Below the pieces are notes generated by a model, which was given only the letters and a program-made list of their open reading frames with translations, searched no databases and was not told where the DNA came from. From an uncultured Poribacteria bacterium (GTDB lineage Bacteria > Poribacteria > WGA-4E > WGA-3G): 64,000 bases of DNA. Position numbers and translations under genes: made by a program. Of this stretch, positions 9,408 to 16,756 are shown in pieces. Numbering within the stretch: position 1 is the first letter of the stretch; every line of letters begins with the position of its first letter. The stretch is taken from assembly GCA_958296135.2 (NCBI GenBank), contig CATQHZ020000001.1, positions 1,888,001 through 1,952,000 on the forward strand, written 5' to 3'.

Positions 9408-9460
9408 CGCGAGGGGAACCCTCGGCGATTCGCGCTCGCCGGGTTTTCCCTCGCGCTACA
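9408..9460 (-). repeat. Long GTAG REP-like hairpin overlapping the rimK stop codon
   Basis: Reverse complement GTAGCGCGAGGGAAAACCCGGCGAGCGCGAATCGCCGAGGGTTCCCCTCGCG; related copy at 16757-16802. Confidence 0.75.
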
Positions 9461-10400
9461 GGACATCAACGGCAAATCCGATAATTGCCGCCGCAATGTT
9501 GATACCGGTGACAGATTCAAGTTCCTCAAACCCCGGCGATGGGTTCACCTCTAGGATAACCGGTCCACCCGCCGTTTGGAGCAGGTCTACACCGGCGATG
9601 TCCAATTCCAACGCGGCGGTTGCGCGGACAGCGAGTGATCTTTCATTTTCGGAGAGGGTTACCGCTTCGCCTGATGCGCCTCGGTGGATATTTGCGCGGA
9701 ATTCGCCGGGCGGCGCGCTCCGCTTCATTGCAGCGATAACTTCGCCTCCCACCACGAGGATGCGGATATCAACGCTTCCCGTATTCAACTGTAAGGGCGG
9801 ATGTCTATATCCGCCCGCGTCCGAAATAAAAGGTTGAATTATATAATCTTGATGCAGTTCACACAGGGCATCCACCGCCGAAGTGAGGGAAGTCTGCGTA
9901 TCTAGCAACATAACGCCGCTGCCGTGCGTGCCGTAGAACGGCTTTAAAATAAACGGGTAGTCGCCGAGCTCGGCGACAGCCTCATCCAAAAACTCGGCGG
10001 CACCGACGGTGAGACTCGGCGGCACCGGCAATCCGTGTTGCGCGAGGATGCGCAAGGAACGGAACTTATGGCGCGCGGTAGCTATCGCTTGTGCGCGATT
10101 CATCACCGGGGTGCCGAGCCATTCAAAATGCGCGATGACTTCTTGTCCGTATGCCGCCGTTGAGCTGCTGATGCGCGGAATGACGACATCAATATCTTCT
10201 ACCGACGCGCCTTCATAAGTCAGGCTATTGCCGCTGCCGCATTTTGCAGTAGGCGCGCTTTGCGAGCGCGCCCCACCGATGCGGAGATAGAATCCAAACG
10301 GATCAAGAATGTGGGCAGTATGTCCGGCATTTTCGGCGGCTTCATAGAGACTTCGCGTGGAATAATTTTGGGAGCCCCGTGAGAGAATAGCGATTTTCAT
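9456..10400 (-). CDS. rimK: RimK family ATP-grasp alpha-L-glutamate ligase
   Basis: MKIAILSR, DVVIPRI, EFRANIHRG, AGVDLL, LEVNPSPGFE motifs. Confidence 0.85.
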   Translation of the reverse strand: MKIAILSRGSQNYSTRSLYEAAENAGHTAHILDPFGFYLRIGGARSQSAPTAKCGSGNSLTYEGASVEDIDVVIPRISSSTAAYGQEVIAHFEWLGTPVMNRAQAIATARHKFRSLRILAQHGLPVPPSLTVGAAEFLDEAVAELGDYPFILKPFYGTHGSGVMLLDTQTSLTSAVDALCELHQDYIIQPFISDAGGYRHPPLQLNTGSVDIRILVVGGEVIAAMKRSAPPGEFRANIHRGASGEAVTLSENERSLAVRATAALELDIAGVDLLQTAGGPVILEVNPSPGFEELESVTGINIAAAIIGFAVDVL

Positions 10401-10512
10401 TTTTTGTCTGACTTTCGGCAAGGATTTCTCTTACATCACGTTCTTCTGCGTTTCGGTTGCAACTTTGGGGTTCAAGGGTTGATTGATTTTTCGCAGTTCG
10501 GCAGCAGCAACA

Positions 10513-11934
10513 CTACCCGAACGCAGTTTTAAGCTGTCCCAGCTGTCCCACTGCTTCTATCGCATCCTCAATCTCTTTTCTAGGGACGTTCGCGATAGTT
10601 GCATGGCTGAGCGGATTCAGAATACGACTCCGATACAATTCAATCTCGCTAATGAGCGATTGGGTTAAAAAGGCAGACTTCTGATTTTCAACTTTTATCG
10701 CATCCCAGAAATCCTGACTGTCCAATTTATTCGGTTCGCTGCGGTACCTGACCGGGATACGCTTTTTATCGCAGCATCTCTTGATTGCCTCCTCAAAAGC
10801 GGTACGCAGGTAAATTGCACACGCTTTGTAGTCGTTCAAGGTGAGAAATTCCCTCGCTTTGTCAAGATACGCTTTATCTGCCACGTAGATAGGGATTTCG
10901 TATTCATCGGTTTTCGAGAAATAGAATTCGGCGTATTTCCAATCTTTTTCTGATGTCCGTTGCTTGACAACCTCATACCATACCTTATCGTAGGTGGTTA
11001 GAAAGATTTGGTGATTCGGGAAATACGCCGCCAGAATGTCAAGCACCGGCAGCCGATTTGACATATCCAAGCCGATAAGCACATCGTCCAACGCGAGCAC
11101 CTTCAAGTCGCTCTCTGGCTGAAGGAGAATTGCCGCAAAATAGATAGCGAGAGAAATCGCCGACAACTTCGCCTCATTGAGGAAAAGGTGATGTGCCGGT
11201 ATTTCCCTGTCCAAGAATTCTACCGTTAAGAGGAGCTGCTGGTTATCTAGCGTCTTGGCTTCCCGGTTGTAGGTGATGCCTTCAAACGTGAGGTTGAGGG
11301 TAACGTCGTATCCGAACTTGCGGAGGATTTCGGATGCGAGCGTTTGTAGTTCTTCTACTTTATTCGTGAGTCCCCTATTGAAACGCTCTATTTGTTCATC
11401 TAATTCCGCAATCCGTGCTGCCGCGTTTCGGCGTGGACGAGGCGCGCTTTGGAGGGCCATCCATTCACCTCCAAGGGCTTGCGCGGTTACCTGATTAATA
11501 GTGTTAGCAAGAAGACTCTCCACTAGCAATTTGAAGAGATTCACATTGTCTGATTTGCTATGGAGAAAGTGGGTTTCCAGCAGCACCTTATAGTCAAGGC
11601 AGCCTTTGGATTTTGAAGCCGCAAGAATTAGCGGATTATCTGTCTCGTTCCTAACAGTCTGCGACCACTCATAGATGGCCTCATTTGCTTTCGGATCCTC
11701 GCGCAGATGAAGTTTGATGTAGCCATCATCGGCGTTGAAGATGTTCCGGTGCCTTTCAAATGGCGACCTTTCCTCACTAGACTCCAAGAACAATTTCAAC
11801 GCGAGATACAGCGACGATTTGCCGCTTCCGTTCTCACCGTAGACGAGGAGATTCTTACCAGCCTTATGCAAGTCAATCTGGTAGGTGCCGTAGAAAGCTC
11901 TGAAGTTTTTGAGCTCGATTCCGGTAATTCTCAT
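10513..11934 (-). CDS. ABC/SMC-type ATPase with C-terminal HEPN-like domain (PrrC/RloC-like)
   Basis: Walker A GENGSGKSS, signature-like FLNEAK, Walker B VLALDD; C-terminal helical domain with RILNPLSH (Rx6H). Confidence 0.75.
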   Translation of the reverse strand: MRITGIELKNFRAFYGTYQIDLHKAGKNLLVYGENGSGKSSLYLALKLFLESSEERSPFERHRNIFNADDGYIKLHLREDPKANEAIYEWSQTVRNETDNPLILAASKSKGCLDYKVLLETHFLHSKSDNVNLFKLLVESLLANTINQVTAQALGGEWMALQSAPRPRRNAAARIAELDEQIERFNRGLTNKVEELQTLASEILRKFGYDVTLNLTFEGITYNREAKTLDNQQLLLTVEFLDREIPAHHLFLNEAKLSAISLAIYFAAILLQPESDLKVLALDDVLIGLDMSNRLPVLDILAAYFPNHQIFLTTYDKVWYEVVKQRTSEKDWKYAEFYFSKTDEYEIPIYVADKAYLDKAREFLTLNDYKACAIYLRTAFEEAIKRCCDKKRIPVRYRSEPNKLDSQDFWDAIKVENQKSAFLTQSLISEIELYRSRILNPLSHATIANVPRKEIEDAIEAVGQLGQLKTAFG

Positions 11935-13868
11935 CGTTGCTTACTCTCAATGATGCGGATCGGTTTCAAAGTATCTAAAAAGAAATGGTTTTTCCGAACC
12001 GGATGATGTTTGTCAAACAGATGCTCAAAGATTTCGCGGATAGCAGGCACTTTATCATCGCCCGGAATCTCCTCAAGTTGCGGAAGACACTCATCAAACA
12101 GCGGCTGGAAGAAGTATTTATCCCCCTGATGGAGTTCATCGGGCAGATAGAGCTCATAAACCAGCCCATCAAGGATATGCCCAAAATACGCTACCATCAC
12201 GTAGTCGCGAGCGTTGGTTAACTCAGACCCGTCTGTCGTCGGCAACTTCTTAAGATAGAGGATGTATTCAACCAACTTGTGGAGGAGCGATCTCTGCGCC
12301 GAATCCATATCCGGAATCGGAATTTGCGCGACGGACCGGGGCGAAAACGTTAAAAATGAATCCTTCCGCTTCTGTGGTGTCGTTCGCGCGTGAAACCATG
12401 AAACCGCTCGCGTATTAAGCACACCGAGGATCCACAAATCTTGTGTAGGTAGAACAAACGAAGGGCTTCCGACATAGTAGCCTTCGTCATCAAAAGCAAA
12501 CGCCGTTTCGCTCGCCATGTACGGATAAACACATTTCGGCCGCTCAAAGCGAACGGGATCCCTAGCGGACTCTAGGAGTTCGTACCATTCCCGCCGACCG
12601 ATTCTCTCTTGCAGCACATCCTTGTATTCTTCCAAGTGCTTCTTAATCGCCGGGTAAGCATTGAGCTCTATTCCCCGATGGGTGAAAATGAGCCACCTAT
12701 TGCTTGGCTTCACGCGCCAACGTTTAATATCACGCATACCTAGAAACGGCTTCAAAATATCGGCAGATGATGGATGCGCTGCAATCAACGCATCCCGTGT
12801 GGCCGGGTCTATGATAAATGCTTTGTTCAACCCGGTTATAATACCGCTAGACCGTCCCTGAACGTATTCACCCAATGGTTTGCCAGCACAACGAAACTTC
12901 TCCAACAGTTGCAAGACCGCGTGGGTGTTCCGCAATTCGCCATCAGGAGTTAAAATCTTCTGCGTCGTAGTAAGACTGTTTACCGGATATTGCCTCAACA
13001 TTGCAACAATGTCTTCCGGCACCTTGAGCCCGTTCCGATTCTCAAACATTGAAACGCTTCTATAGGTGTTATGAAAAGCCGCGGTAATATCCATGCCCAA
13101 GTTCTTGGCGGCTGTCAAGTCTGCTCTAGCTTTATCCCATTCCCGCAGACTTAACCAGCCTTCACCGCGATTGTAAAAGGCATGGGCAAACTCCGGTTTT
13201 AGTTTTATCGCCATCGTCCAGTCTTCAATAGCGCGCGGCGAAATTGCTGTTTTCGCGTGGGCCATACCACGATTGTAATAAGCCTCGGCATACCACGGCT
13301 TGAGGTGAATTGCATCAGAGTAGGCTTCAACCGCCTTGTCCAATTGTCCGAATGTCATCAAAACGTTGCCGCGTTGGAACGCTAATTCGGCGTGTAATTC
13401 TTTTTCAGACATCTCGGACGGCGGATTCGCCTGAGATTGCATTGCGGTAACCGTGCTTTGGATGCGTTCCACTACATTTTTCCACCCACGACTTTCAGGT
13501 TTCCACGCGCGAATCGGTTTGCCTTTGTCAGGGAGAACCGGGAAGTCACTGAGTGGATGACGGAGCCAGTCACATTCCTCAATGATAATGGGAATGACGC
13601 GCATATTTGCGTTTAATGCCGCTGCCAACTCCTCGTTGCAATTTTCCGAAGCCAAGCTAGCAGCGGAGGTCAAGTAGAGCAGCAGGTTCAGCTTCGCGAG
13701 GCTGCTGAAAATAGCGTCGCGCCATTTGTCGCCGGCAGCGATTTCGGTATCGTGCCAGAGGCTTATCAAACCCTCGCGCTCTAGGGCAGCAAGGTGCGCT
13801 ATCAATTTATCCTTTGCCGCGGTATCTTTATGCGAGTAGGTGATGAAGATCTTTACCGGCTTGCTCAC
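11931..13868 (-). CDS. TIR - TPR - type IIG R-M target-recognition (TaqI_C-like) fusion protein
   Basis: TIR motifs IFITYSHKD, WHD, SENCNEE; TPR motifs AYYNRG/AFYNRG; GIITGLNKAFIID, KPFL..RDIKRW, WYEL, LGVLN, LVYELY typical of the Eco57I/TaqI C-terminal region. Confidence 0.8.
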   Translation of the reverse strand: MSKPVKIFITYSHKDTAAKDKLIAHLAALEREGLISLWHDTEIAAGDKWRDAIFSSLAKLNLLLYLTSAASLASENCNEELAAALNANMRVIPIIIEECDWLRHPLSDFPVLPDKGKPIRAWKPESRGWKNVVERIQSTVTAMQSQANPPSEMSEKELHAELAFQRGNVLMTFGQLDKAVEAYSDAIHLKPWYAEAYYNRGMAHAKTAISPRAIEDWTMAIKLKPEFAHAFYNRGEGWLSLREWDKARADLTAAKNLGMDITAAFHNTYRSVSMFENRNGLKVPEDIVAMLRQYPVNSLTTTQKILTPDGELRNTHAVLQLLEKFRCAGKPLGEYVQGRSSGIITGLNKAFIIDPATRDALIAAHPSSADILKPFLGMRDIKRWRVKPSNRWLIFTHRGIELNAYPAIKKHLEEYKDVLQERIGRREWYELLESARDPVRFERPKCVYPYMASETAFAFDDEGYYVGSPSFVLPTQDLWILGVLNTRAVSWFHARTTPQKRKDSFLTFSPRSVAQIPIPDMDSAQRSLLHKLVEYILYLKKLPTTDGSELTNARDYVMVAYFGHILDGLVYELYLPDELHQGDKYFFQPLFDECLPQLEEIPGDDKVPAIREIFEHLFDKHHPVRKNHFFLDTLKPIRIIESKQR

Positions 13869-13907
13869 GACTTTTCCTCCGCTGGGGTGCTAATTTGCGT
13901 TGGAGGC

Positions 13908-13936
13908 ATGATAACCTATTCGCGCAGAAATGTCAA
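13908..13936 (-). promoter_or_regulatory. sigma70 promoter of the TIR/ATPase operon
   Basis: TTGACA-17 nt-TATCAT on the minus strand; GGAGGA SD before GTG 13868. Confidence 0.7.
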
Positions 13937-14040: not shown

Positions 14041-14838
14041 TTAAGCTGAAGCGGCCTGATACATCTCCCGCATTACTATCAGGATATCCCGCGGCGCACC
14101 GAAAGTATCAGTGAGATAGCGTTTTTCTGCCTGCGTTCTGATGTCTTCGGGGATGCCATGCAGTGCCTCGGCGATAGGACCGGCGATGGCGGCGAGGGTA
14201 TCCGAATCGCCACCGAGAGAGATGGCGTTACGCACCGCATCCTCAAAACTCACGGATGCCAGCGCGCACGTGATTGCCGGTGGTACCGAGCCCTGGCAAG
14301 TCACGTCAAACTTGTACCAGGGTCGGATTTCGTCCACTGTCTGGGACAAGTCGTAGTCATATTTGGAGGTGATAGCCTCGCGGATGCTATCTACATTTTC
14401 GCCCTGATACGCGAGCCAAATCGCATGAGTTGTCGCTCGTGCGCCCTTTATGCCTTCCGGATGATTGTGCGTAATCGCAGTCACCTTGTCGGAGGCGGCA
14501 AGGGCTGCATCCAGATTATCGCGGTTGAGGAACGCCGCAGGCGAGACGCGCATGGCAGCACCGTTTCCGAAACTGTCATAAGGCTCAGGCACATCGCGAT
14601 AAATCCACTTCCCAAACATGCCGCCGTAGCCGCCCCGCGGATGACAGCGGCACCACTTCTGCATCGTCGCCGCGGGCGGGAGTTCGTGTAGCAGTATATC
14701 CGCTACCGCTGCTGTGCAAATCGAATCGTCCGTGAACCGGCAGTCTGTGCCAAAGAAAGGAAAATCCTTGGTTTTGATCTGATGCCTGCGTCTCTCATAT
14801 ATTGAGCCGACAATGTCGCCGATAATCGCGCCTATCAC
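14041..14838 (-). CDS. ADP-ribosylglycohydrolase (DraG/ARH family)
   Basis: GAIIGDIVGS, FTDDS, SFGNGAAMR, THNHPEG, GGDSDT; GTG start at 14838 with GGAGGA SD. Confidence 0.9.
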   Translation of the reverse strand: MIGAIIGDIVGSIYERRRHQIKTKDFPFFGTDCRFTDDSICTAAVADILLHELPPAATMQKWCRCHPRGGYGGMFGKWIYRDVPEPYDSFGNGAAMRVSPAAFLNRDNLDAALAASDKVTAITHNHPEGIKGARATTHAIWLAYQGENVDSIREAITSKYDYDLSQTVDEIRPWYKFDVTCQGSVPPAITCALASVSFEDAVRNAISLGGDSDTLAAIAGPIAEALHGIPEDIRTQAEKRYLTDTFGAPRDILIVMREMYQAASA

Positions 14839-14918
14839 GTTTCCTCCGCCGCCGTGGATGCCTCCGTTACGAGGCTCTAGCGGATTTTGTCCCAAAGACA
14901 AGAACGTTTGGGAATTTC

Positions 14919-14945
14919 GTAGGCGCGGTGTGCACCCGCGCCTAC
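14919..14945. repeat. GTAGGCGCG-family REP-like palindrome
   Basis: GTAGGCGCGGTGTGCACCCGCGCCTAC. Confidence 0.85.
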
Positions 14946-14970
14946 GGGGTTCCTCCTGCACAAGTCAGGA

Positions 14971-16629
14971 TTAGACCTCGGAATAAACCCAGATTTGGAG
15001 TGCCTTCTCGGCGAGTTCCTCTGCCCTTTCTCGGATAGTCTCTTCGTCCCACTTCTCCGCTCGGGCAAGGCTACGATTCAAGCGCAACGGGCTATCGCGA
15101 AATCCGTCTTTCATATACTGCTTCTCGCGGAAGGAGCGATTGCCCAACTTTGAATTGGAACCCGTAAAGGTGAGGTTCCCGATCGTGTGGAGGTACTTCT
15201 CCTGCGTTTCTCGGAAGTTTCCGCCAAGTTCAGCTTCCCATGCCTCAGACAGTGTTTGCGGCATCACGTGCTCGGTTGAGTACTCCGAAACGTTAACGGG
15301 TTCTCTACGTTCATAGTTTTCCAATTTGCGCAGCAGATACTCGCGCCTGTCAAAATTATAGACATCTTTAACCATCAATTCCCGCCGGAACTCGGAGTTG
15401 GCTGGATAACGTCTGTAGGCGGACATTCTCAAGAAAGCGGCCTTCACACTTTGAAGGTAATTGCTTTTGTCAATTTCCTTCGTCAGTCCCGCGAAGGTCT
15501 TATTCAAACTGTTCGTTGGAATACCACAGATAGCGCGCCGGAAGACGTAACTCTCCACCAACCGAAGAATCTCAATCAGTTCGGATTTTTCGATACGGCA
15601 TTGCGTCCAATCCTCATAGACTCCAAGTAAGAACGGAAACGCTACTTCAACGCCAAGGTCCAGAATATCCGCAAAACAATCTCGGATTTCCTGATCTTCT
15701 TCTTGAAGCAAAGCAATACGAACATAGTGCCTTGAATAGCGCGCAATTGCCGCAACCGCTTCTAACGCGTCCTGAGATTCTATGCTAGGAACATGCACTT
15801 TGAAACTCTCGTAAACGCTGCGAATGTTTGGGATCTTCCCTGTCATTAACGTGAGATAGTCTCTTATGAACCGGTCAAACCGCTTGGAGTATGCGTCCCC
15901 AAAACGTTGCTCCATAGGAAACCAATACTCTTCGTAAAGCATCTTCTGGAGATCGGTATCCTGGCCCATAAGCACGTAGTTGCGTATGAGATCCGCTTGC
16001 GATAGGCTGAGTCCAGTGGAATTGAGGCTCTCAAAGATCAGTTGCGGATTATCATGTCCACGCTCTAGCGCGATGTCCACAATCATTAACTTTTTAATGC
16101 CCTCGTATACTACGCCAAGTTCAGCTCTTTCAAGCTTGACTTTAAAAAAGGCGTAGTTCTCCACCAAGCGATGTGAAGCATCTGCGGGTTCTCTACGCTC
16201 CAACAACTGGATCAGCGTATCCTTGTCATGGCGCGTTAACAGTTGTTTGTAGCGCAGTTCGTCCTCTTCATCGGCGTTAAAAAGATAATAATTTGAGAGT
16301 TGTCTGGGACTTATGCCAATGTCACTACGCTTTTCTTCAATTGCTTTACCGAGTCCCAAAAGCAAAAGAGATAGGGTAGTTAACCGTTGTTGCCCATCAA
16401 TAACCAGAAATTCTGGCACCGTTGAAATGTTCCCAACCCCCGGTTGCATGTAGACGATTGAACCGAGAAAATGAGACGTAATCCCCGGATTTGCTCCGAT
16501 GCGCATGATGTCATCCCACAGCCGTTGGCAGTGCTTCTTTTCCCAACTATATCTGCGTTGAAAGATGGGAACAAGAAACTGCTTCGGTCCTTGAAGGAAT
16601 CGCAAAAAACTTGTTTCGTTTGCTTTCAT
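14971..16629 (-). CDS. gmrSD: GmrSD-type (DUF262 + DUF1524/HNH) modification-dependent restriction endonuclease
   Basis: VPIFQRRYSW, DGQQRLTT, IFESLN; C-terminal EHVMPQ and GNLT; start MKANET at 16629 with GGAGGA SD. Confidence 0.85.
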   Translation of the reverse strand: MKANETSFLRFLQGPKQFLVPIFQRRYSWEKKHCQRLWDDIMRIGANPGITSHFLGSIVYMQPGVGNISTVPEFLVIDGQQRLTTLSLLLLGLGKAIEEKRSDIGISPRQLSNYYLFNADEEDELRYKQLLTRHDKDTLIQLLERREPADASHRLVENYAFFKVKLERAELGVVYEGIKKLMIVDIALERGHDNPQLIFESLNSTGLSLSQADLIRNYVLMGQDTDLQKMLYEEYWFPMEQRFGDAYSKRFDRFIRDYLTLMTGKIPNIRSVYESFKVHVPSIESQDALEAVAAIARYSRHYVRIALLQEEDQEIRDCFADILDLGVEVAFPFLLGVYEDWTQCRIEKSELIEILRLVESYVFRRAICGIPTNSLNKTFAGLTKEIDKSNYLQSVKAAFLRMSAYRRYPANSEFRRELMVKDVYNFDRREYLLRKLENYERREPVNVSEYSTEHVMPQTLSEAWEAELGGNFRETQEKYLHTIGNLTFTGSNSKLGNRSFREKQYMKDGFRDSPLRLNRSLARAEKWDEETIRERAEELAEKALQIWVYSEV

Positions 16630-16756
16630 AATCCTCCCTCTATCGTTAGGATTTAGAGTTGAAATGCCTTCAACCCATAATATATTATACGATATGTCCA
16701 ATCGAAAGTCAAATTTATTTTCCCGCGGAGCAGGTTTGGGCTCGGTTGGAGCATAG

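Follow-up and report, generated by a model that had tools for sequence, protein, structure and literature searches.

A TIR-TPR protein fused to a type IIG target-recognition domain and coupled to an ABC ATPase with a HEPN-like domain: a candidate PrrC-like anti-phage module of Poribacteria

A 64,000-nucleotide stretch of DNA from an uncultured Poribacteria bacterium (contig CATQHZ020000001.1, positions 1,888,001 to 1,952,000; hereafter the window) was analysed for a gene pair which an earlier note had proposed to be a new antiphage system. The product of gene 1, P0001, joins a TIR domain, TPRs, the target-recognition domain (TRD) of a type IIG restriction-modification (R-M) enzyme and a helical C-terminal tail, and the product of gene 2, P0002, is an ATP-binding cassette (ABC) ATPase ending in a HEPN-like domain. 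The pair is conserved and intact and is not an assembly artefact. The catalytic residues are intact in both proteins (E80 of the TIR domain, Walker A and B, and R377-x3-E381...H444). We consider it somewhat probable that the pair is a PrrC-like anti-phage module of the abortive-infection type, with HEPN and TIR effectors in one complex, and for this module we infer a defence role, a trigger, both enzymatic activities and a suicidal outcome.

The domains of P0001 were assigned using the Pfam and PADLOC models. Its N-terminus is a TIR domain and not an endonuclease domain: Pfam TIR_2 matched residues 7-103 (E 3.3e-14), and the PADLOC model ThsB1, a ThsB-type TIR, matched residues 6-147 (E 4.9e-27), a likeness that holds at the domain level only. 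The putative catalytic residue E80, the Glu of a C-N-x-E-L motif, was invariant in 81 of 81 aligned relatives. Pfam TPR_11, TPR_1 and TPR_2 matched at residues 160-227 (E 1e-11 to 4e-14), with the TPRs as a whole reaching over residues 160-260, and the AlphaFold2 (AF2) model contains three TPR pairs plus capping helices, the helices having a predicted local distance difference test (pLDDT) value of 75-95. The mean pLDDT of the whole P0001 model was 65.7, and this model was used only for the TPRs, the TRD, the tail helices and one Foldseek run. No Eco57I, N6_Mtase, MmeI or nuclease family was found in P0001 by Pfam at E <= 0.1. The architecture proposed in the earlier note, a 645-residue protein in which a TIR domain retaining its putative catalytic Glu and about three TPRs precede a type IIG C-terminal region devoid of nuclease and methylase, was borne out.

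The TRD was recognised by several searches. Pfam TaqI_C matched residues 375-518 (E 4e-10), and the PADLOC REase_MTase_IIG models matched with their C-terminal ends only, residues 301-493 being aligned with positions 850-1060 of a 1148-position model (E 2e-23). In the PDB sequence search, the TRD part matched M.BseCI (E 2.8e-11) and CamA (E 1e-8), in each case in the C-terminal part of the chain; both are solved methylases whose PDB entries contain cognate DNA. CamA and M.BseCI were also on top of the list when Foldseek was run with the mediocre P0001 model.

Metagenome contigs were scanned with an alignment of the ATPase, and 80 loci with 26-50% identity to it were kept. The upstream open reading frame (ORF) was scanned in 46 of these loci, the rest being cut by contig ends or having no such ORF; it usually overlaps the ATPase gene by 4 nt. 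In 29 of the 46 loci the upstream partner was a complete type IIG enzyme with an Eco57I methylase (26 of them also with TaqI_C), mostly of 950-1350 residues, with one ORF of only 384 residues. Other partners were GmrSD_N proteins (6/46), McrBC (2/46), RhuM, SLFN/AlbA_2 and DUF2326 (1/46 each) and proteins without any family (5/46). Residues ~290-645 of P0001 align to the very end (the last ~350 residues) of the ATPase-partnered type IIG enzymes at 30-37% identity, as in the alignment with positions 879-1257 of a 1258-residue type IIG protein. Judging by these alignments, the TRD part of P0001 descends from type IIG enzymes, as the earlier note had it. Its further proposal, that TIR-TPR replaced the catalytic half of an R-M enzyme, holds as far as the missing methylase/nuclease half and the type IIG descent are concerned, but the TIR domain is merely one of several optional heads (see below).

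The last part of P0001, the helical tail, is a candidate module for docking on the ATPase. A hidden Markov model (HMM) of the tail matched the extreme C-terminus of 45 of the 56 upstream partners of related ATPases and none of the 7 unpartnered proteins of the window's own genome (3 type IIG enzymes and 4 TRD-only ORFs, all without such an ATPase gene). Since the unpartnered proteins align with P0001 only to residues ~540-574, the tail is the mark of ATPase-partnered proteins. The features search (Atlas) with the tail gave a weak, unconfirmed lead to MmeI_C (score 0.93, 139 shared features), and the Pfam MmeI_C model had no match in the own genome at E <= 1.

For the complex prediction, P0002 was combined with residues 290-645 of P0001 in three runs and with three controls. 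The score was 0.82, and the best of the 3 controls reached 0.00. The mark used for this score is reached by 58 of 80 solved complexes and by 2 of 110 mismatched pairs; as self-built alignments were used here, this calibration is only rough. The single runs scored 0.00, 0.82 and 0.83, with a contact agreement of at least 0% and a partner pLDDT of at least 78. The confident contacts lie between residues 553-564, 582 and 620-635 of the tail and residues 99-109, 146-151, 173-194 and 271-275 of the ATPase. According to this modelling, the tail is predicted to bind the ATPase.

The model of P0002 matched Rad50/SMC/RecF-type ABC heads in both Foldseek and VIA, and Walker A (G33-x-N35-G36-x-G38-K39), L252-N253-E254 and Walker B (D283-D284) were invariant in 57 of 57 sequences. 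The C-terminal domain is all-helical in this model. In its alignment, built from 59 relatives of P0002, R377, E381 and H444 were invariant (59/59), N440 and E454 were present in at least 90%, and R435 was the majority residue. When the members of the alignment were scanned singly, 24 of the 59 matched Pfam DUF4145 (best E 0.001), 14 matched the HEPN family PF05168 (best E 3.1e-5), 4 matched PaREP1 and 1 matched HEPN_Swt1. For comparison, genuine DUF4145 domains, 20 in number and all above the Pfam cut-off, were collected from genomes of the same family. The alignment of the C-terminal domain with these 20 domains by hhalign had a Prob of 88.2% and E 2.9e-6 over 99 columns; in it, R377/E381 fall on the R..E in the first helix of DUF4145, and R435-N440-H444 on the R..GN...H motif of that family. 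In the P0002 model, N440-x3-H444 lies at the start of the helix 441-449. Meanwhile, the PDB profile search with the same alignment gave only chance-level matches (best E 0.048, an interferon), and the features search (Atlas) named no family for the HEPN part. We hold the HEPN assignment with moderate confidence, and the ABC head together with the HEPN profile evidence supports P0002 as an ABC-HEPN protein of the PrrC/RloC functional class, which the earlier note had brought up. The motif given there for P0002, Rx6H, is indeed present in this copy as R437...H444, but R437 is not conserved among the relatives and the invariant set is R377/E381/H444.

Of the 8000 candidates scored in the search with P0001, 1102 were relatives at E <= 1e-3. 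All of the best 120 carry both TIR_2 and TaqI_C, and they are 645-1119 residues long because the number of TPRs varies; the named close relatives are annotated as 'tetratricopeptide repeat protein [Candidatus Poribacteria bacterium]'. For P0002, 2722 cluster representatives were found at E <= 1e-3 and 525 at E <= 1e-30. Of the 176 genomes of the phylum that were searched, 88 have homologues of the ATPase, spread over 7 of 31 genera, with at most 5 matches per genome. Across these 176 genomes the distribution is patchy, multi-copy and often decayed, with many ATPase fragments. In 28 of 29 Poribacteria loci, the end of the TRD-tail coding sequence and the start of the ATPase gene are no more than a few bases apart; the 29th is cut by a contig end. 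The search of genome contigs returned 6 loci, of which 2 match only the TPR part. The other 4 are full-length loci, and in each of them the ATPase gene overlaps downstream; they belong to one syntenic Poribacteria chromosome, one uncultured bacterium and two Latescibacterota metagenome-assembled genomes, where the pair has housekeeping genes on both sides (succinyl-CoA ligase and a sugar-isomerase-like gene). The fusion and the gene pair are not unique to this assembly.

Two of these relatives should be mentioned separately. The ATPase ORF of the uncultured bacterium (L002 3823-4905) ends at 360 residues, without the HEPN part, and is either a decayed copy or the result of a sequencing error. 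The conjugative plasmid pANSO36B of Nostoc cf. commune (L149 4988-7434) encodes a 338-residue TRD-tail protein, annotated as 'TaqI-like C-terminal specificity domain-containing protein' and 41% identical to residues 332-640 of P0001, the gene of which overlaps that of a 477-residue 'AAA family ATPase' 49% identical to P0002. This minimal module adjoins TrbI/VirB10, and its host, a cultured cyanobacterium, makes it a convenient experimental source.

The ratio of nonsynonymous to synonymous substitution rates (dN/dS, omega) was calculated by the Nei-Gojobori method for one orthologous pair only, namely the window and its syntenic relative L001 (gene 1 at L001 8001-9941). The dN/dS values were 0.38 for the TIR domain, 0.21 for the TPRs, 0.15 for both the TRD and the tail, 0.14 for the ABC head and 0.35 for the HEPN part. 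As far as this one pair tells, all domains are under purifying selection. With its value of 0.15 the TRD is not drifting, and the neutral evolution that the earlier note had considered for this part was not seen. It should be noted that dS is uneven along gene 1 (TPR 0.22, TIR 0.35, TRD 1.06), which gives a hint of recombination inside the gene. Such unevenness suggests separate histories of the head and the TRD, with recombination or a swap of domains as possible causes.

The N-terminal head of the partner proved to be variable. At 20 further Poribacteria loci taken with wider flanks, the start of the gene upstream of the ATPase was classified. A TIR head was found in 8 of the 20 loci with our own TIR HMM, an FRG head in 8 (Pfam PF08867 above the cut-off and at the expected place in 5/5 checked), an HNH_5-type finger in 2 (PF14279, 2/2), and in 2 loci the protein started directly with TPRs, without a head. 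The scores of PF14279 on the HNH-like heads were 28.3 and 26.6 bits (28.1 with in-frame neighbours) against a cut-off of 27.5, and the HNH family PF01844 did not match them. The search with the TRD-tail only was followed by the classification of the 120 nearest proteins with our own HMMs, which gave 21 TIR, 30 FRG and 13 HNH-type heads, 53 proteins with TPRs only and 3 bare TRD-tail proteins; the tail was present in all 120. The precomputed Pfam lists for the same proteins contained 21 TIR, 29 FRG and 3 HNH-type heads. FRG is a domain of the ART superfamily and a possible, predicted NADase effector (excerpts of PMC9503650). TIR, FRG and HNH look like added effectors, and such head swapping is typical of effector modules in conflict systems. 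Because the head varies between TIR, FRG, HNH and none, the core of the family is the TRD-tail with the ABC-HEPN protein and not the TIR domain.

Further TIR and FRG domains were noticed as well. At L138 3969-8365, three tandem stretches coding for TIR domains are situated upstream of a copy of the module, the last of them being its own head, so that the place resembles a TIR-rich islet. The genomes G105, G108, G149, G164 and G091 contain 2-10 FRG-domain ORFs each above the Pfam cut-off, most of them outside the module; these symbionts are unusually rich in FRG proteins.

The window's own genome contains further arrangements of type IIG genes. At two places (L016 3135-8179, C1:988 kb, and L017 2509-7232, C1:2986 kb) a complete type IIG gene (1202 and 1220 residues) is followed by a separate TIR-TPR gene (398 and 256 residues), and such unfused neighbours could be the raw material for P0001-like fusions. 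Just upstream of the second type IIG gene (L017 495-2493), an AAA_21/AAA_15 ABC ATPase of 461 residues and a DUF4276 protein are encoded, which resemble a further small module built on an ATPase within that island. At a third place (L018 4124-15857, C1:2156-2168 kb, minus strand), the gene of a 1681-residue type IIG enzyme containing two TaqI_C domains precedes a tandem row of four TRD-only ORFs (452-501 residues). They form direct repeats with a period of ~1.6-1.8 kb and 60-98% identity, and no inverted repeats were found at L018 4124-15857. This array has the look of a store of cassettes for alternative specificity domains.

In the window, the pair belongs to a row of four consecutive minus-strand genes between housekeeping genes (Table 1). 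At the junction, CAACGATGAGA, the stop codon TGA of gene 1 overlaps the ATG of gene 2 (ATGA, 4 nt), and the GTG start of gene 1 is preceded by GGAGG at a distance of 7 nt. The overlap, the own promoter and the Shine-Dalgarno sequence described in the earlier note were all found again, the promoter being a consensus match only: 2 promoter-like sites were found in the region against 4.4 expected, hence no excess. The GmrSD-type restriction gene, 1.1 kb upstream of the pair, was counted for the defence reading as neighbourhood. Meanwhile, the ADP-ribosylglycohydrolase and the GmrSD-type enzyme were rejected as members of the module, being absent beside 20 of 20 other copies. Apart from the window, they go with the pair only in L001, the syntenic relative, where they precede it. 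The glycohydrolase gene is common on chromosomes of the phylum: 117 of 176 genomes have it, at other places. No ThsA effector (SIR2 or transmembrane with SLOG/Macro) was found in the Pfam and PADLOC scans of 11 neighbouring ORFs.

Table 1. Genes, domains and sites of the gene pair and its surroundings (positions in the window).
Feature	Position	Strand	Remarks
Aldo/keto reductase			Flank on the other side of the four-gene row from RimK
GmrSD-type enzyme	14971-16701	-	PADLOC Orf5/HEC-06, E 5.7e-176
ADP-ribosylglycohydrolase	14041-14961	-	9 nt after the GmrSD-type gene
Sigma-70-like promoter site TTGACA-17-TATCAT	13908-13936	-	11/12 consensus matches, upstream of the pair
Gene 1 (P0001), 645 residues, TIR-TPR-TRD-tail	11931-13868	-	GTG start
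TIR domain, residues 7-147, putative catalytic Glu E80	13428-13850	-	Pfam, PADLOC
Three TPRs and capping helices, residues 155-279	13032-13406	-	Pfam and AF2 model
TRD, residues 300-519, type IIG / gamma-class adenine methylase type	12312-12971	-
C-terminal helical tail, residues 520-645, candidate ATPase docking module	11934-12311	-
Gene 2 (P0002), 473 residues, ABC ATPase with HEPN-like C-terminal domain	10513-11934	-
Rad50/SMC/RecF-type ABC head, residues 1-353, short coiled-coil insert (helix 172-205)	10876-11934	-
All-helical C-terminal domain, residues 354-473, probable HEPN superfamily, DUF4145-like	10516-10875	-
RimK	9456-10421		Flank on one side, along with a glycosyltransferase

In the mechanism that we favour, the products of the two genes would form one complex, in which P0001 may be the sensor, the scaffold and the silencing partner owing to its TPR array, its DNA-recognition domain of restriction-enzyme origin and its helical tail. 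The tail would dock on the helical lobe and the coiled-coil insert of the ABC ATPase, the head of which would act as a transducer. At rest, the HEPN RNase and the TIR NADase would be held inactive by the ATPase head together with its partner. The phage-derived cue, either foreign DNA or a phage protein targeting restriction enzymes, would be read via the TRD/TPR part and via nucleotide cycling by the ATPase. Both effectors would then be released, HEPN cleaving RNA and TIR breaking down NAD+, and the infected cell would stop growing.

Several observations weigh against this mechanism. The TIR domain cannot be essential to the mechanism of the family, since 53 of the 120 nearest proteins have no enzymatic head, and the AF2 model is of poor quality in its TIR part (pLDDT mostly <55). 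The moderate strength of the HEPN assignment counts here as well: P0002 itself matches DUF4145 only at E 0.054, below the Pfam cut-off, its motif has the spacing R-x4-N-x3-H instead of the canonical Rx4-6H, and the Foldseek and VIA searches covered P0002 as a whole, with lists filled by ABC heads. One of the three complex runs scored 0.00. No methylase was found by the Pfam scans in the pair or in nearby genes, and the version in which DNA is sensed needs an extra condition, because without a methylase a purely sequence-specific sensor would see the DNA of the host too. No phage trigger of the module is known, no relatives were found in 50,697 phage records, and we found in the literature no experimental work on any member of the family.

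The problem of self-DNA is removed if the TRD-tail serves as a bait by imitating the portion of a resident restriction enzyme that binds DNA, for a bait needs no methylase. In such a guard, DNA would not be the ligand; a phage anti-restriction protein, either a DNA mimic or an Stp-like peptide, would bind the bait in place of the real enzyme or in addition to it, and this binding would alone fire both TIR and HEPN. PrrC is switched on by the T4 anti-restriction peptide Stp acting on EcoprrI (excerpts of PMC3710099 and 10.1101/2024.01.29.577857), the ancestors of P0001 were apparently restriction enzymes with the same ATPase partner, and the own genome has several type IIG enzymes. However, no type IIG TRD found in the own genome is more than 32% identical to that of P0001, which is hence no close copy of a resident target, and no anti-restriction protein of Poribacteria phages is known. 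The conservation of the TRD (omega 0.15) resembles that of a working domain and fits the bait and the mechanism favoured by us equally. We regard the bait as rather unlikely.

The remaining explanations are less likely. Signalling of the Thoeris kind, in which TIR would make an ADP-ribose-derived signal and the HEPN ATPase or a distant protein would be the activated effector, seems quite improbable to us. The TIR part does find its best PADLOC match in ThsB (E 4.9e-27), and it has been proposed that TPR domains receive the signals made by TIR (excerpts of bioRxiv 10.64898/2025.12.03.692087); nevertheless, no ThsA-type or known signal-binding domain was found by Pfam and PADLOC in P0002 or the neighbouring genes, and the exchange of TIR for HNH, FRG or nothing is easier to reconcile with an optional effector than with a signal maker that would be indispensable. 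The chances are slim that TIR and TPR are 'eukaryote-like' domains acting on the sponge host rather than on phages, even though all named close relatives come from Candidatus Poribacteria, a phylum of sponge symbionts, and the own genome is rich in TPR and ankyrin proteins. The TIR-TPR part is joined to a domain for DNA recognition, its gene is translationally coupled to that of an ABC-HEPN ATPase, the module also occurs in Latescibacterota, on the Nostoc plasmid and in many non-sponge metagenomes with restriction-enzyme partners, and no sign of export was noticed, although no formal test for it was made. We give the least credence of all to a dead remnant, a decayed type IIG gene fused by chance to a TIR-TPR gene, which the data on conservation already contradict. 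The nuclease and methylase halves are indeed lost, related genomes contain many fragmentary copies, and the TIR-TPR genes directly behind type IIG genes at two places of the own genome would make an accidental fusion easy, but both ORFs are intact with all catalytic residues kept, omega is 0.15 in the TRD and the tail, and the architecture is kept across phyla in more than 1000 proteins.

As to the novelty of the module, it has already been described that restriction systems are backed up by ABC-HEPN proteins and by other HEPN domains (excerpts of PMC3710099), and for this reason the module is a variant and not a new kind. The 'new antiphage system' of the earlier note stands in so far as no full-length PADLOC 2.0 model fits P0001 or P0002 and no name for them was found in PADLOC 2.0 or the papers searched; its general logic is in print in the same excerpts. 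We found no description in the papers searched or in PADLOC 2.0 of this ATPase family being coupled to type IIG enzymes via a dedicated tail, nor of the headless, TIR, FRG or HNH forms, and an earlier mention of either is possible. The family would extend the PrrC logic to single-chain type IIG enzymes through one recognisable candidate docking tail, and its natural 'minimal' versions (the 338-residue TRD-tail, the TPR-only and the TIR/FRG/HNH-armed proteins) separate sensing from restriction and modification. If both the contact and the defence role are true, the pair would be a compact, testable model for the guard-type activation of HEPN RNases, for a DNA-recognition domain re-used as an immune sensor, and for NAD+ depletion combined with RNA cleavage in one complex. 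It would also be a frequent addition to the defence catalogue of sponge symbionts, half of the searched genomes carrying the module.

PrrC is the standard example of a suicide RNase backing up a restriction enzyme, and to our knowledge it is still unclear how that enzyme keeps it silent. P0002 shares with PrrC and RloC an N-terminal Rad50/SbcC-like ABC ATPase (Walker A, signature, Walker B) followed by a C-terminal HEPN RNase domain (a putative one in P0002), and the pair shares with PrrC and the type Ic enzyme EcoprrI the genetic coupling to a restriction enzyme or its derivative. The coiled-coil insert is short in P0002, unlike that of RloC, which has a long zinc-hook coiled coil. The logic of a second-line suicide response is likely to be shared as well (excerpts of PMC1484252 and PMC3710099). 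The catalytic triad of PrrC is Arg320-Glu324-His356 (excerpts of PMC1484252), and its R-x3-E spacing is the same as in R377-x3-E381...H444, which is a likeness of pattern and not an alignment. Unlike PrrC, whose partner is hsdMSR, P0002 has a partner derived from a single-chain type IIG enzyme, minus nuclease and methylase and plus TIR-TPR, and the pair is not embedded in a type I (hsdMSR) locus. The HEPN domain of P0002 appears to be closest to DUF4145 and not to the PrrC/RloC family; Pfam AAA_13 matched P0002 only in the P-loop stretch (residues 16-60, 19.9 bits against a cut-off of 36), and there was no PrrC model among the best 25 of its 98 PADLOC matches.

The type IIG enzymes of the Eco57I/MmeI kind share with P0001 the TaqI_C-type TRD (residues 300-519), whereas the PD-(D/E)xK nuclease and the Eco57I/N6_Mtase domains are missing from P0001, and hence it is neither a restriction nor a modification enzyme. 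TIR-TPR proteins ('TIR-II', Nat Commun 2024) gave phage defence in E. coli (excerpts of PMC11350192). Together with Thoeris ThsB they share with P0001 the N-terminal TIR with a catalytic Glu, followed by TPRs, and are likened to it by architecture; unlike in these systems, the TIR-TPR part of P0001 is fused to a TRD and a tail and coupled to an ABC-HEPN gene, with no ThsA nearby. The ABC head as a defence sensor or transducer is shared with Gabija, PARIS, Septu, Lamassu and MAD3 of MADS (OLD-family/SMC-like). PADLOC mad3 matched residues 2-317 of P0002 (E 4.3e-11), and LmuB, AriA, PtuA and GajA matched its P-loop end. Kinship with MADS was rejected, as NF047739 (antiphage_MADS3) reached only E 0.053 and 12.7 bits against a cut-off of 420, and only the ABC class is shared; a MAD4 nuclease would be the expected partner in MADS, whereas the partner of P0002 is a TRD protein. 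Finally, DUF4145 has been listed among the HEPN families that have links to operons of the R-M and McrBC kinds (Anantharaman et al. 2013, excerpts of PMC3710099), and with this family P0002 shares both the profile match and the genomic company (R-M, McrBC, RhuM). Unlike these DUF4145 domains, the HEPN-like domain of P0002 is fused to an ABC head, has the motif R-x4-N-x3-H and carries an extra invariant R-x3-E in its first helix.

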